Below, in pieces: positions 1 through 9,216 of a stretch of DNA of 64,000 nucleotides (position 1 is the stretch's first letter; the number at the start of each line of letters is the position of its first letter). The DNA lies in sequence record NC_135728.1; one strand, given 5' to 3'. A program made the position numbers and the translations under genes. Below the pieces are notes generated by a model, which saw only the letters and a program-made list of their open reading frames with translations, was not told the origin of the DNA and made no database searches. This DNA comes from a phage.

Positions 1-1983
1 TTATTTGGTGTTATTCTTTGCGTCGATCAGTTCACGGTATTCAATCATAGCAGGAGTGTCCCAATATTTCAAGCCCACATGCTTCAAAAGCGGATATTTC
101 TTTTCCAATCTTGCAATATAGGCCTTCCCGCACTTGACTCGGTTAGCGATTAAGATTTTGGCACGATGATTTAGCTCACTGTGCTTCCACGCGGTGTTAC
201 CTTCCCACTTGTGGAAATGTGGCCGATAATTTCCAAAATCTTGCATGGGGATAATTTTCCCTAATTGTCTATACAGGCTGTCATATGAAGTTTCATTTGC
301 TGCGCGAGTCAGTAAGAATTGCCAGGCGTCCTCTTTCAACAAATGTTCCACATTTTTCTCTGTAACATACTGGCAATCAGGATCAGTCCAAAGCAGACGA
401 GATTCTGATACCAGGTACAGATCTTCACCTTTAGGAATCTGGAGTGCCGCACGCACACGGTCATAATTTTGCTGGTAGATGTTACTCAGCTGTCCCAGCC
501 AACAACTTCCACGTTGGATATCACCCTCATAAGGAATGCAATGCTTAATCTTCTTGAACTCTGCCTTAGTAATACGCTCACGACGGAAGTAACCATCCTT
601 CTCAAGTTTTTTAACCCAATAGCCTGGCTCATAACGAGTTTTTGTTTCACCTTTCTTGACAGGTCGGCGAGGGAGCTCTGATAACAATTTGACCGTATCT
701 GCAAAGAACGGGTGGTGTGCCGCTTCTTTAAACTCTTCCACCAGATCCGTGTTCCGGCAATAGAAAACGTTGCGTCCGGTGATCTCGCTTAAGTAGTTAC
801 ACTTATTCCGGTTATATTTGCCGTCTCCGTCGTTAAATACAAGGTATACACCTCGTAAGAACTCCGACTTTCCGTAACGAGCATAGCCTATGCGGCCCTT
901 ATTTAAGCCGCCAGCGAAAATTTCACAATCGCCTAAGTCACCAAGCCCTGTTTCTTCCCAACGGTTCCACATAAAGTTTTTGCCGAAGATGTGTCCGAAC
1001 ACACCACTATTCTTCATCATTTCACGTGCTTCTGCGGAGGTTTTTGCCGTCTCCAGTTCTGCAACAACTTCTGCCCCGCGAAGACGTATACCTTCTTTGA
1101 CAAAGGCCTCCAGGCGATCCTGGAATCCACCGTCGTCATGGCCCTCTATGGTCCATTCACGCCCAGGGTTAATATTGCAATCCCCAATAGGAATTTCCAC
1201 GCAGATTGCAGGGTAATCGGTCAATGTCTCCAGGAACTTAGAGCGGTAAGGTTGGTGACCCATCACAACACGGCTCTCATCAGAACTGGTATAACCTTTC
1301 AGGATGGTCATTTTCCAGCCATCCTTCTCGTAACGATACTGTGCCTCAACCTTGTCACCTTCTAACATCTTACTGGTCATGGGATCGGTGACGGTGAACG
1401 GAAACTTCGCATAGCGTAAGCACGATGCAATAGCAGTGCGATATTTCAGGACATGCTCTTTCTTAACATGGAACTGAACTTTTACCCCGTTGTGCTCTTC
1501 AGTCTTCCGCTCGCGGATCTTGGTAACGTTTGGGATACCCTGATCCAAGAACAATAGATATGTGCTTTCAACACCATTATGCACACTGATCACATCGAAA
1601 GTGTCCACCATGCTGAACGGAGCCTTTGAACCAACACCTTTATTACCTACCAGAGCGTTGCTGTTGCGCTTGGTTGACTCCCCGAGGTTCATGAAAGTGT
1701 TGCGGACCATCTCTTCTGACATGCCCAATCCAACGTCCTGTACAAAGAAGTATGGTTCAAGGTCTGTAGGAGAGTGAATGATGATCGGTACATCACCACG
1801 TCCAGACTCAACATGAGAGTCCACAGCATTGAAGATTGGTTCACGGCAGCTTGCCAGCACCTTATCTTCGTAAATCCCTTTAATGATTAGCCCAAAAGTC
1901 TCTTTGTTCAGAGAAATTGATCCCCTGGTGACCTCCATATTTCCGGTTAGCACTGCTTTAGTTTCATTACTGTTTACAATCAT
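1..1983 (-). CDS. GHKL-type ATPase domain protein, rIIA-like (660 aa)
   Basis: Complete ORF with stop at 1-3. N-terminal Bergerat-fold motifs: N-box REPIFNAVDS, G1 QDVGLGM, G2 GNKGVGSKA. Size and phage context fit rIIA-type proteins; homology not verified. Confidence 0.5.
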   Translation of the reverse strand: MIVNSNETKAVLTGNMEVTRGSISLNKETFGLIIKGIYEDKVLASCREPIFNAVDSHVESGRGDVPIIIHSPTDLEPYFFVQDVGLGMSEEMVRNTFMNLGESTKRNSNALVGNKGVGSKAPFSMVDTFDVISVHNGVESTYLLFLDQGIPNVTKIRERKTEEHNGVKVQFHVKKEHVLKYRTAIASCLRYAKFPFTVTDPMTSKMLEGDKVEAQYRYEKDGWKMTILKGYTSSDESRVVMGHQPYRSKFLETLTDYPAICVEIPIGDCNINPGREWTIEGHDDGGFQDRLEAFVKEGIRLRGAEVVAELETAKTSAEAREMMKNSGVFGHIFGKNFMWNRWEETGLGDLGDCEIFAGGLNKGRIGYARYGKSEFLRGVYLVFNDGDGKYNRNKCNYLSEITGRNVFYCRNTDLVEEFKEAAHHPFFADTVKLLSELPRRPVKKGETKTRYEPGYWVKKLEKDGYFRRERITKAEFKKIKHCIPYEGDIQRGSCWLGQLSNIYQQNYDRVRAALQIPKGEDLYLVSESRLLWTDPDCQYVTEKNVEHLLKEDAWQFLLTRAANETSYDSLYRQLGKIIPMQDFGNYRPHFHKWEGNTAWKHSELNHRAKILIANRVKCGKAYIARLEKKYPLLKHVGLKYWDTPAMIEYRELIDAKNNTK

Positions 1984-2919: not shown

Positions 2920-4104
2920 TTAAGCTTTAGCCAAAATGGCGCTAAACTCTTCACCAAACTCTTTTACAATCTTCATCAGGTTTGGGTATGCTTTGATCAG
3001 CTGAGCAACAATCTTGTCACGCCCTTTGCCGATAAGCAAGGCATTTCCTAAGGCATTAGGTTTCATCATCGCCATAAAGACTGAGAATACAAAATCTCGG
3101 TTCTCGTCCTTGAAGTTTTCCCAAAGGAAATCGAGGAAGTTTGCCACGCAGCTGACAAGATCTTCGTCTGAGATACTTGCATTTTCCATCATATTACGAA
3201 TAGCGATACAACCTTCAGATCCAAGAATCCACAAAATGTCTGGCTGCTTAGGACCTACGTATTCTTTGCAACCACCTGCCATAATCCGACCGATTTCAGG
3301 TAAATTGCGTTTCTTGGTGTGGTATGTCCAGATCTCTACCGCTGCAGTGTGACCAATAGCACCTTGCAGAAGAACACGGGCCATAGCGTCAGAAATAATA
3401 CCGCTGTCAAAATCGTGCAAGATGTCAGATGCAGCAACCCAAGATCGTGGTGTGGCAAAAGATGGACAATTAATCTCAGCCATAGCCTCATAATTATCAA
3501 TAGCTGATGGAACTCTTTTCAGATACCCAATTACAGAGGAGTGAACCCCGTTGAGGAATGCGTAGTCCTCAATAAACACCTCTGCATTGCTTGTAACCTC
3601 TACAATGATAAAACGGTTAGCCAGAGGGGCTTCGAGCGCCGAAAGAACCGCACCATCTGTAGAACGGTTACCCGCAGCCACAAAAACAGAACCCTTAGGG
3701 AATGCATAGGTGCCGCACTTGTGGTCAAGCATAATTTGCATTGCAACCTTTTGCAGGTAGTTATCTGCATGAGTGAGCTCATCCAGAAAGATAATTCCGC
3801 TCCAGTCAGGATCCGCAGGCCAAAATTCTGGAATTGCAAACACTGTACGTGTAGTTCCATCCGCTTCTACAGGGATAGGTAGCCCAGATAAGTCGGCAGG
3901 ATCTTTATCTGACAGTCGCACGTCAACAAGGTTGTCATCTCGCTCACCGAACATATTATCAGCGATCTGCTTCATCACCTGGCTTTTACCCACACCCATT
4001 GGTCCCAAAATTAGGACAGATCGGCTATGACGTTGGGCAAACTGAATAATAGCTGGCAACTCACGGACAGTGATTTGACCACTTTCGAATACGTTTCTTG
4101 ACAT
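2920..4104 (-). CDS. AAA+ ATPase, MoxR-like (394 aa)
   Basis: Walker A GPMGVGKS and Walker B IIFLDEL; length and layout typical of MoxR/AAA_5 ATPases. Confidence 0.7.
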   Translation of the reverse strand: MSRNVFESGQITVRELPAIIQFAQRHSRSVLILGPMGVGKSQVMKQIADNMFGERDDNLVDVRLSDKDPADLSGLPIPVEADGTTRTVFAIPEFWPADPDWSGIIFLDELTHADNYLQKVAMQIMLDHKCGTYAFPKGSVFVAAGNRSTDGAVLSALEAPLANRFIIVEVTSNAEVFIEDYAFLNGVHSSVIGYLKRVPSAIDNYEAMAEINCPSFATPRSWVAASDILHDFDSGIISDAMARVLLQGAIGHTAAVEIWTYHTKKRNLPEIGRIMAGGCKEYVGPKQPDILWILGSEGCIAIRNMMENASISDEDLVSCVANFLDFLWENFKDENRDFVFSVFMAMMKPNALGNALLIGKGRDKIVAQLIKAYPNLMKIVKEFGEEFSAILAKA

Positions 4105-4798: not shown

Positions 4799-4800
4799 TA

Positions 4801-5058
4801 TCAGTCCACCTCTTCTTCTCGTTGTAGTTCAAGATACCCGTAGGTCTGGACATCTTGAAGGGTGTGGAACTCCCCCTCTGCCGCTAAGGCACGAACAACT
4901 TGGCACAAAACCTTATGAGGAACTTCATCCAAACCTAGATTCAGTGCAGGAAACACCTTATCTAAGTCAACAAAATAAACGAACTGTAGCTCACCAGCTT
5001 CAAAAGGTGTATCTTCAATAAACATCTTCTCGGCATTAGTCAAGATCTGCACTTTCAT
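4801..5058 (-). CDS. hypothetical protein (85 aa)
   Basis: ORF in same-strand array. Confidence 0.45.
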   Translation of the reverse strand: MKVQILTNAEKMFIEDTPFEAGELQFVYFVDLDKVFPALNLGLDEVPHKVLCQVVRALAAEGEFHTLQDVQTYGYLELQREEEVD

Positions 5059-5414
5059 TATTCTACCTCCTCTTCTTTTTCTTCGGCATTAGTTTCATGG
5101 CTACTCCACTCGGGAGTTTCCACCTCGATAGTAAACTCACGCACTACACGGTAATTGCCCATGAAGCGCTCTACTTCGTCAAGGCTTATGGAGAGGCCAT
5201 TGGCAACCAGGTCTGCAGCACCCTCTTCTACCAGGTAGTCCAGATTGGCTTCCAGAGCCTCAGGTTCAAACCCTGTCAATGCAATCAGATAACCTTCCCC
5301 TTCATCAGGGAGGACAATACAGCCCAATTGATTTTCTTTAAAAAGGCAGTGACCATCATTATTGATTGGGTGTTCATTGCAGTACATAGCTGCACGATAA
5401 GTAACTTTAGACAT
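5058..5414 (-). CDS. hypothetical protein; start moved to the internal ATG (MSKVTYRA...)
   Basis: Track ORF begins at a TTG (5435); the ATG at 5414 is preceded by AAGGAGA at good spacing. The start lies inside the 29-bp inverted repeat. Confidence 0.5.
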   Translation of the reverse strand: MSKVTYRAAMYCNEHPINNDGHCLFKENQLGCIVLPDEGEGYLIALTGFEPEALEANLDYLVEEGAADLVANGLSISLDEVERFMGNYRVVREFTIEVETPEWSSHETNAEEKEEEVE

Positions 5415-5419
5415 CGGTA
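5391..5419 (-). repeat. 29-bp perfect inverted repeat, copy A (TACCGATGTCTAAAGTTACTTATCGTGCA in minus sense)
   Basis: Exact reverse-complement match to 7253-7281; spans the start codon and first 8 codons of the 5058-5414 gene. Confidence 0.85.
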
Positions 5420-5427
5420 AGGTCTCC

Positions 5428-5706
5428 TTAGGCAATTGTCATTTTACATTCTTGAAATTTTAACACAAGACGGTGATTGTGTCTAGTGTCTAAAAAGATT
5501 TTTTCAACCATCAGGCACACGGTATAACCGTCCATCTTGTTGACAACAAAATCTCCAGGATGAGGGAGGATGTCTCCCGGATTGGGGAAACATAGTCCAC
5601 TCAGAAAGGCATCGTCAGTGGTGGACTTAATAGATTTCCACACACTGTCTGCCTGAACATGTTCACCGACGTAATATACATTACCACACGCCTTCATCAT
5701 AGTCAA
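5428..5706 (-). CDS. hypothetical protein (92 aa)
   Basis: ORF with ATGA stop/start overlap to the upstream gene. Confidence 0.45.
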   Translation of the reverse strand: MTMMKACGNVYYVGEHVQADSVWKSIKSTTDDAFLSGLCFPNPGDILPHPGDFVVNKMDGYTVCLMVEKIFLDTRHNHRLVLKFQECKMTIA

Positions 5707-6602
5707 ACCCTCGCATAAATTAAACTTGTATCAGTATACTTCTTTAATGGGTAAATATCCTGTCCATAGATGCAATCATTAAACACCTCATCTACCCAAA
5801 GGCTACACTTATATCCCATCATTTCTAAAACACCCATCTCTTCTTCGGTAAACTTATCACCGCTCTTGCAAGATGTCAATACCTCATTCTGAACTCTTGC
5901 TACCTCGAAGCGGTTATTGGCAATATCGCTATTGGCGATCAAATACTCACCTAGAGGGTGTGCGGCATTAAAGATGCACAGTGGACGGCTGACGTAATAG
6001 TCTCCGGGTGTATAAAAATTGTTGAGGTCTTTCACTAGAACATTCTTATCAGTCACTTCATTTATAACATCATGCATATCGCACATCTTTATATGTTTGA
6101 GGATTCCATCCCCCATCACAAAATAAAAACTTGCTGAGACACTTTCGGCATAGATCTTACTAGATCCGTTGTAGTTGTATTTTACTCGGATGCTAACGGG
6201 GGTTTTTCCTGTCGCGTTAGCCATCATCCAAAGAAATGGCAGCTCATACTTCTCCTCTGAGGAAACAAAAGGTGAGGTAGCCAGAGATCGAAAACCTCCA
6301 GAGAAGTTGAAAGTTACAGAACCGCTCCGGCGGTATGATACCGCGTATTCTACTTTTATATCGACGTACCCATTGGAATAGGTGTGTCCTTCATTATCTA
6401 AATATGTCCACTTATCAGACCCAGATACCAATCTACGCTCAATAACCTTCATCACTACAGGAATTAGTGGGTTGGTACAAACCGCTTTTGAAGTAGCTTT
6501 ATCATCTAAAGCCTCGTAAATTGCAGAAAGGATGTCCCCAGCTGAAAGATTGGTTGTTATGTCCTGTTTCCACCGCGTACTAAAACTGTTAAGATTTGCC
6601 AT
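5703..6602 (-). CDS. hypothetical protein (299 aa)
   Basis: ORF with AGGAG RBS about 9 nt upstream of the ATG; first gene of the leftward early block. Confidence 0.55.
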   Translation of the reverse strand: MANLNSFSTRWKQDITTNLSAGDILSAIYEALDDKATSKAVCTNPLIPVVMKVIERRLVSGSDKWTYLDNEGHTYSNGYVDIKVEYAVSYRRSGSVTFNFSGGFRSLATSPFVSSEEKYELPFLWMMANATGKTPVSIRVKYNYNGSSKIYAESVSASFYFVMGDGILKHIKMCDMHDVINEVTDKNVLVKDLNNFYTPGDYYVSRPLCIFNAAHPLGEYLIANSDIANNRFEVARVQNEVLTSCKSGDKFTEEEMGVLEMMGYKCSLWVDEVFNDCIYGQDIYPLKKYTDTSLIYARV

Positions 6603-6642
6603 AAGTAAGTGCTCCTATGTTAGTTTTCTTTCGAATGGGTGC

Positions 6643-6671
6643 ACTATATTGTGGAGTTAGAGTAAAGTCAA
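6643..6671 (-). promoter_or_regulatory. sigma70-like promoter (TTGACT-17-TATAGT) for the leftward early block
   Basis: Minus-sense -35/-10 hexamers with 17-bp spacer in the divergent intergenic region. Confidence 0.45.
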
Positions 6672-6684
6672 CACGTTTTTGATG

Positions 6685-6713
6685 TTGACATCTGTTGAGA
6701 CAATTGATACGAT
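6685..6713 (+). promoter_or_regulatory. sigma70-like promoter (TTGACA-17-TACGAT) for the rightward block
   Basis: Plus-strand consensus -35 with 17-bp spacer and partial -10, back to back with the minus promoter. Confidence 0.4.
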
Positions 6714-6744
6714 TTCTTCACTTACAGAGCACGAGAGACGACTC

Positions 6745-7722
6745 ATGAATCTTGAAAAATATTATACACCAGAAGAGTTAGAGCGCTTGCTCAAAAAATA
6801 TAGACGCAAACAGAATAACGCACGGAAACGAGATATAGAGTTCGACCTGTCATGGGAAGAATACCTCCTATTTGGTAAAAAACTTTTAGGAGATGGAGTA
6901 TGCGACTATACCCTTATACCTTTTGACATGCACACAGATGAAAACGGGCTGGGAAATCCTTTCTACCCATCTCTGGAGCGGATAGATGATGAAGGTCCTT
7001 ATGCGGTTGATAACTGTTGTGTGGTGGGATTGAGATGCAACTCTCTAAAGGACTGTCTGGTAGATAAAAAGACTGCAGTCTTGATTAAAGACGAAACTGA
7101 TCGAAAAATTGTCCAGCAGATGATGCTCCACCTGAGCGAAGAGCGTATGGAGAAATTGAAAGGTGATTATACTTTTGAAGATTTCATCTTGCAATATGGA
7201 ACGGAAGAGGATAAACTAGCACTCTTTGACGAAGAAGAGGAGGAAGATATGCTACCGATGTCTAAAGTTACTTATCGTGCACCCAAGAAGCACATTTCCG
7301 ACATTGTAAACGAGCCTATCACAGAAGAGATTGAAGAAATGACGCAACAGGTGCATGAAGAGGAAAAAGAGACTCAGGAGGTCGAAGAGGAGCTTACAGA
7401 AGAGGTTCCTGCACTACCTGATGATGTTGAGATTGCCAAAGCTTACACTTTCTATTGTCAAACGTTCTACGATGTAGGTATGAAAGTTGATCTGTCGTTC
7501 AGCCAATTTAAGAGTTCGTATATTCGCAAATGCTGTGCTTTAACTGGTGAACGTCTTGGAGCTGGACTTAAACCTCTGTTGGTGACCGACTGGAATAAAG
7601 GTTTCACTAAAGGAAACTTTATGGTAGTATCTCCAATTATGGAGAAAGCTATGACAGATCTTATGAAGACCACCCGCATGACAATGACCGAGTTGGCAGG
7701 TATTTTCAAACACGTTAAATAA
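6745..7722 (+). CDS. hypothetical protein with HNH (His-Me finger)-like motifs
   Basis: Track ORF starts at TTG 6679, upstream of the predicted promoter; first ATG after it is 6745 (MNLEKYY). Motif SLERIDDEGPYAVDNCCVVGLRCNSLK plus an acidic linker; a second in-frame start (MSKVTYRA, 7258) sits in repeat copy B, so this may be two genes. Confidence 0.45.
   Translation: MNLEKYYTPEELERLLKKYRRKQNNARKRDIEFDLSWEEYLLFGKKLLGDGVCDYTLIPFDMHTDENGLGNPFYPSLERIDDEGPYAVDNCCVVGLRCNSLKDCLVDKKTAVLIKDETDRKIVQQMMLHLSEERMEKLKGDYTFEDFILQYGTEEDKLALFDEEEEEDMLPMSKVTYRAPKKHISDIVNEPITEEIEEMTQQVHEEEKETQEVEEELTEEVPALPDDVEIAKAYTFYCQTFYDVGMKVDLSFSQFKSSYIRKCCALTGERLGAGLKPLLVTDWNKGFTKGNFMVVSPIMEKAMTDLMKTTRMTMTELAGIFKHVK
7253..7281 (+). 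repeat. 29-bp perfect inverted repeat, copy B
   Basis: TACCGATGTCTAAAGTTACTTATCGTGCA on the plus strand; identical to the reverse complement of 5391-5419. Confidence 0.85.
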
Positions 7723-7734
7723 TAACAGGGGCCA

Positions 7735-9216
7735 ATGGCCCCTTCTGGAGTTTTAATGGATAGCAGAAGTTCAGAAATCATTGCCTCGCAGAAAGATGAT
7801 GCCCTGAGAATGTTGCAGGCTGCACGTATGTATCTCCTTGAAAAGCTGCCGTTCTATGGCACACTACTGTCAGGGTTGCAGTTCGTAGAAAACCACACAT
7901 GGTGCTCCACCATGGCAACCGACCATAAACGCATCTATTACAGTCCTGAGTTCATTATGGGATTGGCTGATGAACGCAAGGCTATTCTTAAGGCTTCTCT
8001 AACTGACGAGCAGTTTGAGATGGCTGAAGTTTTCTATTCCCCAAAATCTGTGAAAGAGGTGGCCTTCCTTCTGTCACATGAGGTGGGGCATATTATCTGT
8101 GATCACCTAGTCCGTGGTAAAAGCTTTGAGCCGGAACTGTTCAATATTGCTTGTGATCACGTTATCAACACAGGCCTTGTGGTTGACTTTAGCAAACCTC
8201 CTTGTGTTTTCTTCCCGAAGGGGAAAAGCACTACGTTCGTGAAAGGTAAGCCTTTTGGCTTCTTAGCCAGCTGCTACTGCGACATGAAGTTTCATGGATG
8301 GATTGCTGAGAACGTTTATGCAGTTCTTGATAAGCAAAGAGATCAGAATAACGGTAAAAGTAAGAACGGTAAAGGTGAGAACTCTCAAAGTGATAAGCGA
8401 CAAACCGATGATCACATGAGTGGGAACGGTGGCACCAGTGATAATCTTGGAAAGGCTATGGGGTATGATCAGCCACAACCTGTAATCAGCCAATCTGATA
8501 AAGATCAGGCCATGCAGGACTCTGGTGATATGCTGGAGGCAGCAATGCAAGCGTCCGGAGGCCGTTGCCCTGAGGCGGTGCGTGAGTTTGTCAAGAACAG
8601 AGGTAAACCTGTAATCAACTATATAGACATCATTAAGCAACGCATGTTGTCTAAAAGAAAGGCCGAACTGACCTACAGAAAACCTGGTCGCCGATCTGGG
8701 TCTTTGACCAGCACAATGCGAAAAGTTGGGGCTATAAACAAGAACCAGCACGTTATTGTTCCTGGTCGTAATCCGGAAAACACTATAGATATTGTGGTGG
8801 CTTTAGACGTTTCTGGCTCGATCTCTCAAAGAACTTTAAAGAAAATGTTCAATGAAATCACCGGATTGTGCAATCTGTATAAAGAGTTTAAGGTTACAAT
8901 GTTCTGTTGGTCAACTGAGGTTGGAGAGGTTAAAGTATACACTCGCGGCAACATAGACGAGATGATCAACTATGAGGTCCACTCAACATGGGGCACAACA
9001 GCTGCTTGCGTGTTCGAGTATCTGGATGCCAACATACCTAATGCAAAAGATGTCATCGTCCTGACCGACCTATACTTTGAGCATAACTTTGAACAAAAGG
9101 TTGTTGACAACAAGTGGAAAAAGTACGATACTCTATGGGTCCTCACTGAGGGGTATAATAAAAATTATATCCCGAGCTTTGGGAAAACTGTGGAATTAAT
9201 CGAGTACGCTAAGTAA
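7735..9216 (+). CDS. vWA-domain protein with N-terminal HExxH metallopeptidase-like motif (493 aa)
   Basis: HEVGHIICDH zinc-binding motif; C-terminal MIDAS-like VVALDVSGSIS; true start may be the ATG at 7756, since a hairpin overlaps 7726-7744. Confidence 0.65.
   Translation: MAPSGVLMDSRSSEIIASQKDDALRMLQAARMYLLEKLPFYGTLLSGLQFVENHTWCSTMATDHKRIYYSPEFIMGLADERKAILKASLTDEQFEMAEVFYSPKSVKEVAFLLSHEVGHIICDHLVRGKSFEPELFNIACDHVINTGLVVDFSKPPCVFFPKGKSTTFVKGKPFGFLASCYCDMKFHGWIAENVYAVLDKQRDQNNGKSKNGKGENSQSDKRQTDDHMSGNGGTSDNLGKAMGYDQPQPVISQSDKDQAMQDSGDMLEAAMQASGGRCPEAVREFVKNRGKPVINYIDIIKQRMLSKRKAELTYRKPGRRSGSLTSTMRKVGAINKNQHVIVPGRNPENTIDIVVALDVSGSISQRTLKKMFNEITGLCNLYKEFKVTMFCWSTEVGEVKVYTRGNIDEMINYEVHSTWGTTAACVFEYLDANIPNAKDVIVLTDLYFEHNFEQKVVDNKWKKYDTLWVLTEGYNKNYIPSFGKTVELIEYAK

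Follow-up and report, generated by a model that had tools for sequence, protein, structure and literature searches.

Templated mutagenesis from imperfect direct or inverted repeats was reportedly described in phage T4 by Schultz and Drake in 2008, quasipalindrome-associated template-switch mutations are said to have been described by Ripley and, in Escherichia coli, by Lovett, and Loytynoja and Goldman reportedly found short-range template-switch mutation clusters in genome comparisons in 2017. We describe here a 29-bp perfect inverted repeat that we read as a natural product of this kind of mutation. It lies in 64,000 nt of phage DNA (sequence record NC_135728.1; this whole stretch is called the window below), where one arm covers the start of the minus-strand gene gp008 and the other lies inside the plus-strand gene gp011.

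Quasipalindrome template-switch mutagenesis homogenises the imperfect arms of inverted repeats (PMC5941160, PMC8604942, PMC7202029). Shorter spacers are favoured in template switching at inverted repeats (PMC8604942), and a survey of inverted repeats considered only spacers of up to 70 bp (PMC5941160). Repair synthesis leads both to quasipalindrome mutations and to microhomology-mediated ectopic template switches (Sugawara, Towne, Lovett & Haber, bioRxiv 10.1101/2023.08.09.552703).

In our reading the repeat is the scar of one templated mutation in the ancestry of a gp011 allele, here called the M type, and we give this a probability of about 0.82. The evidence is a short patch in gp011 that is identical to the gp008 start, short matches on both sides of it that were there beforehand, and an outgroup that gives the direction of copying.

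The repeat and the two genes

The window is from a Vequintavirus (an rV5-like E. coli myovirus); it is 99.8% identical to phages FFH2, Gotham and JLBYU08 over 4800-8000, with the coordinates of FFH2, and is equally close to Murica. The 29-mer TACCGATGTCTAAAGTTACTTATCGTGCA occurs on the plus strand at 7253-7281 and as the exact reverse complement at 5391-5419, with 0 mismatches and a spacer of 1,833 nt. These are the two copies in the window, where no third was found at up to 3 mismatches. The pair is the sole perfect long inverted repeat in the 64 kb, the other listed pairs being 71-95% complementary, and the sequence immediately outside both arms is unrelated. A first-pass annotation of the window, made from its letters alone, had reported this perfect repeat and its unrelated flanks, and both observations hold.

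The number of 29-mer matches expected by chance is 0 (100 dinucleotide shuffles), and the repeat is present in at least 27 records of phages isolated independently of one another (USA, Denmark, Switzerland, Germany), as well as in a human-gut metagenome contig. The probability that chance, convergence or an assembly artefact explains it is negligible.

The arm at 5391..5419 (minus strand) is native to gp008 and is the donor in our reading. It consists of the last 5 nt of the gp008 5' untranslated region (UTR; TACCG), the ATG at 5414-5412, and codons 2-8 (SKVTYRA). gp008 itself (5058..5414, minus strand) encodes 118 aa of unknown function (phrog_12908) and was found only in the genus, in 116 records, nearly all with at least 90% amino-acid identity. 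A Shine-Dalgarno (SD) sequence, AAGGAG, stands upstream of the ATG, and a ribosome-binding site (RBS) is annotated there in phage Murica. The first-pass annotation had called ATG 5414 an RBS-preceded minus-strand start, and it is indeed the annotated gp008 start in FFH2, Murica, rV5 and others. As a separate observation, residue 10 of gp008 is Met in the window (GCTATGTAC, 5388-5390) and Ile (GCTATTTAC or GCCATTTAC) in every fetched relative; this private substitution directly adjoins the arm.

The recipient arm at 7253..7281 (plus strand) lies in the acidic inter-domain linker of gp011, at residues 170-179, and the peptide common to both arms is (L)PMSKVTYRA. Its ATG, at 7258, is in frame inside the plus-strand open reading frame (ORF) 6745-7722, as had been noted; that ORF is gp011. 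The gene (6745..7722, plus strand) encodes a 325-aa, two-domain protein that is Srd-like or degenerate HNH-EndoVII-like, and the linker in which the right arm sits is a hypervariable acidic stretch between the two conserved domains. gp011 matches PHROG 3118, 4592 and 1400, with the labels HNH endonuclease, endonuclease VII, 'decoy of host sigma70' and 'Srd anti-sigma factor'; the part matching the HNH endonuclease, endonuclease VII and Srd families of PHROG is the N-terminal domain. The rV5 annotation names the protein Srd-like, and no Pfam match was obtained at E <= 0.1. It is an old protein, with full-length homologues of 37-40% identity in Seunavirus, Mydovirus and Avunavirus. Comparison of its N-terminal with its C-terminal domain by BLASTP gave E = 1.2, and we claim no internal duplication.

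A probable templated patch in the gp011 linker

The change in gp011 was read from a DNA alignment of the gene over 12 relatives. A 13-nt core, TCTAAAGTTACTT (7261..7273, plus strand), stands in place of the ancestral 25 nt CAGGATTTTAAAAATTTCATGGCTG, with a net loss of 12 nt in frame (4 codons), so that QDFKNFMAD becomes SKVTY. The T at 7253 is likewise of the donor type. In the alignment the rV5 type reads GATATG TCACCGATG CAGGATTTTAAAAATTTCATGGCTG ATCGTGCAGCC, the window reads GATATG CTACCGATG TCTAAAGTTACTT ATCGTGCACCC, and the gp008 start reads AGACCT TACCGATG TCTAAAGTTACTT ATCGTGCAGCT. The patch is identical to the donor at 13/13 positions and to the sister lineage at 6/13, and all 7 changes are to the donor base. 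Given a local background divergence of 9-13%, the probability of 7 such changes in 13 positions together with the 12-nt deletion is ~1e-8 to 1e-7 if they were untemplated. A cluster of changes that are all explained by one donor is what a templated footprint is expected to look like.

Such a footprint should also have microhomology at both junctions in a recipient of the ancestral type, and this is seen. The left anchor, ACCGATG (7254..7260, plus strand), and the right anchor, ATCGTGCA (7274..7281, plus strand; ATCGTGCAGC in the rV5-type allele), are both native gp011 sequence and pre-existing microhomology. The left anchor reads TCACCGATG in rV5 gp011 and TCACCAATG in the FV3 type, and the right anchor reads GATCGTGCAGCC and AATCGTGGAGCC, respectively. 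The microhomology to the gp008 start is 7/7 (ACCGATG) plus 10/10 (ATCGTGCAGC) in the rV5 type, and 6/7 plus 9/10 in the FV3 type. The alleles that are not of the M type keep both flanking matches, with 25 unrelated nt between them. The 29-bp repeat is thus best described, from these alignments, as a donor-derived core joined to short homology that was already there.

The anchors need no special explanation, because chance alone supplies many inverted microhomologies of 10 + 7 nt. Bipartite inverted matches of this size, with gaps of up to 30 nt, number 237 in the 64-kb window (130-171 in shuffles), and 14 within 3 kb (11-19 in shuffles).

Distribution of the two arms

The gp008-start arm is present throughout the genus, whereas the gp011 arm is restricted to one clade, the M type (FFH2, Murica, Gotham and relatives, among them the BASEL phages CarlMeissner and WalterGehring). 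We fetched 12 loci without the second arm (rV5, FV3, V18, slur16, A142, YP-6, ECP26, EI-SP-GF, JeffSchatz, I29 and two IMG/VR contigs); all have the gp008 arm with 0-3 mismatches, and the gp011 arm was not found in any of them at up to 6 mismatches. The two IMG/VR contigs were the only loci returned by a search of that database for gp008 relatives. A 106-nt query over the gp011 site divides the records sharply: 27 match at 99% or more (26 of these were listed, each at 100%), ECP32 matches at 97.2%, and 90 match at 60-80% (one of which is a spurious Synechococcus phage match), with no intermediates.

These distributions indicate a young, clade-restricted repeat. The first-pass annotation had named two findings that would together refute its proposal, the first being absence or degeneracy of the repeat in close relatives with otherwise identical gene order (the second, no use of 7258 as a start); most relatives do lack the gp011 copy.

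Direction of copying

A neighbour-joining tree of the linker built without the patch columns (midpoint-rooted) pairs the M type with the FV3/A142 lineage and leaves the rV5 lineage outside; the FV3/A142 and rV5 lineages both have the 25-nt form. The gp011 of the window is a mosaic, with its N-terminal part nearest to the FV3/ECP26 group (2.5-4%) and its C-terminal part nearest to the rV5 group (1.1%). Because the two parts nest in different groups, the M allele is not a deep sister of all the others.

The gp011 linkers of Seunavirus, Avunavirus and Mydovirus are too divergent to decide the polarity, and two outgroup proteins, P0017 and P0018, were used instead. Against the gp011 portion of the search query they have 70-71% identity, and BLASTP with gp011 itself gives 65%. 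The linker of these proteins, MTPAQELREFMEKRAEKHVKDIV, is homologous to MSPMQDFKNFMADRAANKHISDIV and not to MLPMSKVTYRAPKKHISDIV, and within it the motif MTPAQELREFMEKRAEKH corresponds to MSPMQDFKNFMADRAANKH, not to MLPMSKVTYRAPKKH. The DNA agrees: the outgroup linker CAGGAATTACGTGAGTTCATGGAAAAACGTGCTG (CAGGAATTACGTGAGTTCATGG...CGTGC) shows homology to the 25-nt form, and this homology takes in the CGTGC of the right anchor. At the left anchor the outgroup reads ACACCTGCA, so the CACC core of that anchor is old, and at the right anchor it reads AAACGTGCTG, encoding the conserved R-A. The outgroup homologue of gp008 has 28% identity and the N-terminus MKIVILRN; since this N-terminus differs, it is no possible donor in the outgroup.

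The outgroup, tree and mosaic results together mark the 25-nt form as the ancestral one and the anchors as gp011's own sequence, not relics of an older copy. On this comparative evidence the copying evidently ran from gp008 to gp011, with a donor that existed beforehand and is unaltered and a polarity set by an outgroup, as expected of a templated footprint.

The opposite polarity would make the 29-bp gp011 copy ancestral and have the rV5 and FV3 lineages lose it by replacement. There is only a single split between M and non-M alleles inside the genus, and a tree that is only midpoint-rooted would permit this. It is nevertheless extremely unlikely: the 25-nt form is homologous to the outgroup linker in both protein and DNA, the M allele is nested by its N-part in the FV3 group and by its C-part in the rV5 group, and the window was found to hold no second occurrence of the ancestral 25-mer from which the reverse change might have been copied.

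The contig that encodes P0017 deserves mention in its own right. It is L026 (Logan ERR13991562_3269, 64 kb) and is syntenic with Vequintavirus gp003-gp012, with proteins 28-73% identical. It apparently represents an unsampled lineage between the genus and the other Vequintavirinae genera, and it holds the most similar outgroup gp011 that was recovered.

Drift and exchange after the event

The arms are perfect in seven M-type sequences (the window, FFH2, Gotham, Murica, MiataMamis, C2 and the human-gut contig). The other three of the 10 clade sequences inspected have 1-3 mismatches. The arms of ECP32 (gp011, TACCTATG...; gp008, TATCAATG...) match at 26/29 positions, while PMBT16 and nomine have TGCCGATG... 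at gp008 only and match at 28/29. All these mismatches are uncompensated, affect one arm only, and fall in the five bases upstream of the ATG. This pattern, as far as sequence can tell, is that of arms drifting independently, in a pair that is not maintained. The identical 24-nt core needs no selection on the pair, because the coding portion of the gp008 arm is conserved genus-wide anyway.

A possible G/A covariation between the two sites just before the ATG was considered and rejected: it is concordant in rV5 and the A142 group and discordant in FV3, V18 and slur16. The pattern fits phylogeny and recombination, not covariation.

The patch is carried on a mosaic block of the M-type gp011 allele (~6970..7450, plus strand) that differs from otherwise near-identical genomes. 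JeffSchatz and I29 (loci L019 and L020) are near-identical to the window at 4800-~6950 and ~7450-8000, and have an rV5-type allele within ~6970-7450. Per 100 nt, their differences from the window number 0-5 outside the block but rise within it to 14-15 (7000-7100), 31-34 (7200-7300) and 25 (7300-7400). Since these two genomes depart markedly from the window only in ~6970-7450, the linker allele is exchanged among genomes by homologous recombination.

Proposed mechanism

The event may have proceeded as follows. The ancestral linker, ...ATG TCACCGATG CAGGATTTTAAAAATTTCATGGCTG ATCGTGCAGCC..., by chance matched the gp008 start, 1.8 kb away in the opposite orientation, over 6-7 nt (ACCGATG) and again over 8-10 nt (ATCGTGCA(GC)). 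A nascent 3' end would disengage after copying ACCGATG in gp011; this could happen in replication, although in a phage recombination-dependent or repair synthesis is the more probable setting. The freed end, using either the opposite strand or a sister genome, could then re-anneal to the complement of ACCGATG that lies at the gp008 start, copy TCTAAAGTTACTT (at least 13 nt), and return to gp011 via ATCGTGCA. Short-patch heteroduplex conversion between the same microhomologies would be an alternative route, and would leave an identical scar. The outcome in either case would be a donor-derived tract of ~21-29 nt and a hypervariable acidic linker shorter by 4 codons, with the perfect repeat as a by-product. 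The allele was tolerated and spread; ordinary homologous recombination now shuffles it among Vequintavirus genomes, and the repeat is decaying by independent point mutation. The comparisons show which gene was donor and which recipient, the polarity, the microhomology, the restriction to one clade, the separate drift of the arms and the lack of inversions in assemblies; we infer that the change was neutral, and whether a template switch or heteroduplex repair made it is likewise a matter of inference.

Several points weigh against this account. Classical quasipalindrome switching acts over tens of nt, and the spacer here, at 1,833 nt, is not short; an intra-strand hairpin is unfit at this distance, and therefore a cross-fork, inter-molecular or D-loop switch has to be invoked. 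The C at 7252 differs from the T of both donor and ancestor, which requires one extra synonymous change (TTA to CTA). There is no intermediate allele, and the M linker differs by ~9-10% from its sisters outside the patch, so that the sister alleles may not match the recipient exactly. Finally, neutrality is assumed, and loss of the replaced motif could have had a phenotype or been selected; this motif, Q[DE][FL][KR][NE]FM..RA, is conserved out to the ~65-70%-identical outgroup.

Does the repeat mark an operator or an internal start?

The first-pass annotation had offered a shared translational operator as one explanation. One factor, a protein or a small RNA, would bind both the gp008 start and the gp011 copy as a shared cis-regulatory element, and so co-regulate gp008 translation and an internal start at 7258. 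The element is in sense orientation in both mRNAs, and in each gene it covers an ATG and 7 codons. In both, the ATG is followed by the codons UCU AAA, and codons of this sort are usually regarded as favourable near the beginning of a gene. The 154-aa product of an internal start, beginning MSKVTYRAPKK, would be the complete C-terminal domain of gp011.

A shared operator should lie in genuine initiation regions and be conserved, but only the gp008 copy is in an annotated initiation region, and the gp011 copy is absent from 90 of the 117 Vequintavirus records, whose gene order is otherwise the same. The gp011 copy has only 5 nt of the gp008 5' UTR, without its Shine-Dalgarno; the nearest SD-like sequence, GGAGG (7239-7243), is 14 nt upstream of ATG 7258 and 5 nt from ATG 7249. 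The RNA folds no better than shuffles in the two contexts or as the 29-mer alone (z = -1.0, -0.3 and -0.05), and an Rfam scan at E <= 1 gave no match. The mismatches of ECP32, PMBT16 and nomine, moreover, are in the 5 nt before the ATG, where constraint on an operator would be expected, and they are not mirrored in the other arm. With a clade-restricted gp011 copy that lacks an SD, no significant RNA structure and uncompensated mismatches, the operator proposal does not stand up well, and we regard it as very unlikely.

Two other features near the gp011 arm may be recorded here. The SD-like GAGGAGG/GGAGG (7239-7243) stands 5 nt upstream of an in-frame ATG at 7249 (gp011 Met169, in the motif EEDM) in all lineages of the genus. 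As a candidate internal start for the C-terminal domain alone, this ATG is better placed than 7258; the SD-like sequence could equally be a by-product of Glu codons. In addition, a promoter-like TTGACG-16-TATGCT (7226-7253, plus strand; 9/12 consensus positions) reaches into the arm by one base. Only the derived allele has the T that closes its -10 hexamer (the ancestral reading is TATGTC), and the number of such sites in the region is within chance expectation.

Does the repeat invert or border a mobile segment?

The interval between the arms (5420..7252) contains gp009 (5428-5700, minus strand), gp010 (5703-6602, minus strand), divergent promoters and gp011 codons 1-169. A promoter scan placed sigma70-like promoters at 6643-6671 (minus strand) and 6685-6713 (plus strand), the second of which coincides with the annotated P11 of rV5. 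The divergent promoter pair and three coding regions that the first-pass annotation had placed in the interval are therefore there, as gp009, gp010 and the N-terminal part of gp011. In all 115 of the 115 relatives that cover at least 80% of the query the interval is colinear and aligns as a single BLAST piece, and it is also syntenic in the ~65-70%-identical outgroup contig L026. By this comparison it is ancestral, not an insertion.

The arms could in principle be a recombination substrate that mediates inversion of 5391-7281, at low frequency or as a programmed switch, to give two in-frame chimeras. In silico, inversion joins the gp011 N-domain to gp008 in a 289-aa fusion and places the gp011 C-domain by itself, as a 154-aa product, under the gp008 RBS; the diagnostic inverted junctions would be GAAGATATGC-arm-GCTATGTACTGC and AAGGAGACCT-arm-CCCAAGAAGCAC. 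Each arm is read in the same frame by its own gene, so that both ORFs stay open, and the flipped segment carries both divergent promoters, so that all genes stay transcribed in silico. At 29 bp the arms are also near the minimal length for homologous recombination.

An invertible segment, on the other hand, is known by a recombinase in or beside it, by both orientations in assemblies and by conserved repeats, and none of these was seen, with six genes scanned for the recombinase. The annotation had suggested searching related phages for both orientations; the 115 colinear relatives, which include all M-type genomes listed, have the native one only. The sole metagenome contig with the gp011-side junction is likewise in the native arrangement, and IMG/VR had none in a junction-pattern scan. 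A search for the 289-aa chimera in 5.8 billion proteins returned none that covers more than 67% of it. Among gp007-gp012, the six genes that were compared with Pfam and PHROG, there is no invertase or integrase. The repeat, besides, is young and clade-restricted and is degenerate in 3/10 members. That the arms bound a rearranging segment, as had been proposed, is thus highly improbable, since the searches found no inverted arrangement and no chimeric protein, and the six genes no recombinase.

It is also a long shot that the scar has since acquired a use, either with the copy co-opted as an internal start, the early codons of gp008 now following ATG 7258, that yields a free gp011 C-domain, or with the arms allowing rare inversion of the promoter-bearing 1.9-kb segment, with in-frame chimeras in part of the genome population. 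Were either true, a single templated mutation would have been enough to give rise to a new protein isoform.

The arms might instead border a mobile element, as terminal inverted repeats or as the footprint of the insertion of a homing endonuclease or transposon with an 'HNH' gene. RefSeq and PHROG 3118 both give gp011 the label HNH endonuclease, and inverted repeats do bound a 1.8-kb segment. A mobile segment should be polymorphic for presence and absence, however, and no such polymorphism exists; all relatives, and the ~65-70%-identical outgroup too, have gp009, gp010 and gp011 in an unchanged order, and the gp011/gp012 pair, divergent from the leftward operon, is kept in other genera. One arm lies in mid-gp011, so that the 'element' would halve a conserved two-domain gene. 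gp011, for its part, is of an Srd-like family and has no Pfam HNH match, and its arm is derived, having arisen in a genome that already held the interval. A mobile-element border is scarcely credible on these grounds.

These results also settle what is left of two remarks in the first-pass annotation. The 'intervening ORF with HNH-like motifs' is gp011 itself, and HNH is only a PHROG and RefSeq name, without a Pfam match. The proposal of a gene-conversion or recombination footprint 'from a mobile insertion' is right in its first part, in that the gp011 arm is a templated copy, and unsupported in its second, since the interval is ancestral and syntenic.

Neighbouring genes and public records

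For gp008, gp009 and gp010 the PHROG matches are all to families of unknown function, and Pfam gives none, so that the public label 'alpha 1-3 fucosyltransferase' on gp010 (5703-6602) is without Pfam backing. Downstream of gp011, gp012 (7735-9216) is publicly labelled 'HNH endonuclease' or 'anti-sigma factor', and is a DUF2201 metallopeptidase-like plus VWA-like protein; its partner is the MoxR-type ATPase gp004 (2920-4104), so annotated in the rV5 and FV3 records. Between gp011 and gp012 there is a GC-rich hairpin, AGGGGCCATTGGCCCCT (7727-7743), which has a terminator annotation in Murica and was also picked up by a scan, on the minus strand.

Some records have anomalies at these genes that may be sequencing errors or real variants. 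The gp011 of V18 (L011) is frameshifted or truncated, gp008 of YP-6 (L009) is split in two coding sequences, and protein P0019 is a gp008-gp007 fusion. Sixteen MG0656xx 'Campylobacter phage' records are ordinary Vequintavirus genomes, with up to 99.7% identity to the window. Three of them, either fetched (A142, C2) or listed, carry the UNVERIFIED flag, and the host attribution is probably wrong.

Comparison with known systems

Nothing suggests that the repeat is a switch, an operator or a mobile-element border; it has no demonstrated function and is most likely a scar. It behaves as the footprint of a template switch or an ectopic micro-conversion and so adds a further example to a familiar class of mutation, notable chiefly for its range and the clarity of its reconstruction; no new biological system is revealed. 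A striking repeat over two 'starts' resembles a regulatory or recombination site, and comparison with relatives shows a scar, so the locus serves both as a caution and as a worked example.

The autogenous control sites of T4 RegA or gp32 differ from the present case in that the gp011 copy is clade-restricted and is without a properly spaced Shine-Dalgarno. The Gin, Cin, Hin and Min invertase systems and the shufflons are alike in having a segment of ~2 kb, short inverted repeats in coding sequence and an in-frame swap. Here, in contrast, there is no recombinase in the six genes examined and no alternative orientation in assemblies, and the repeats, which relatives do not conserve, have already begun to decay.

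The closest likeness is to quasipalindrome template switches, in which an imperfect inverted repeat is made perfect in one step with the donor arm unchanged, a substitution cluster plus an insertion or deletion is explained by the other arm, microhomology is present at both junctions, and several residues are replaced at once when the site is in a coding region. The differences are that the arms here are 1,833 nt apart, where theirs are tens of nt apart, so that a hairpin intermediate is implausible; that the tract is large for such events, at 21 nt or more, with 13 nt of novel core and a net deletion of 12 nt; and that the product is a fixed clade-wide allele in natural phage genomes, not the output of a reporter assay. 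Ectopic template switching (bioRxiv 10.1101/2023.08.09.552703) is alike in that a strand dissociates, realigns on another template via microhomology and returns, and it can bridge long distances or separate molecules, as a donor 1.8 kb away or in another genome of a highly recombinogenic phage replication pool would require. It was demonstrated in yeast, whereas a break or D-loop at this locus is conjecture. In the short-range template-switch clusters of Walker et al. 2021 (PMC7954356) a mutation cluster in an alignment is, as here, explained by a single inverted copy; theirs are local, and ours connects two opposite-strand genes across a divergent promoter region.

Set beside these systems, the repeat offers a clean, natural, microhomology-anchored templated mutation over 1.8 kb, between opposite-strand genes of a lytic phage, with its polarity, donor, anchors and decay documented. 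One event rewrote several linker residues, and the allele then spread by mosaic recombination. Its 1.8-kb range is well beyond the spacers of tens of nt in inverted-repeat surveys (PMC5941160, PMC8604942).

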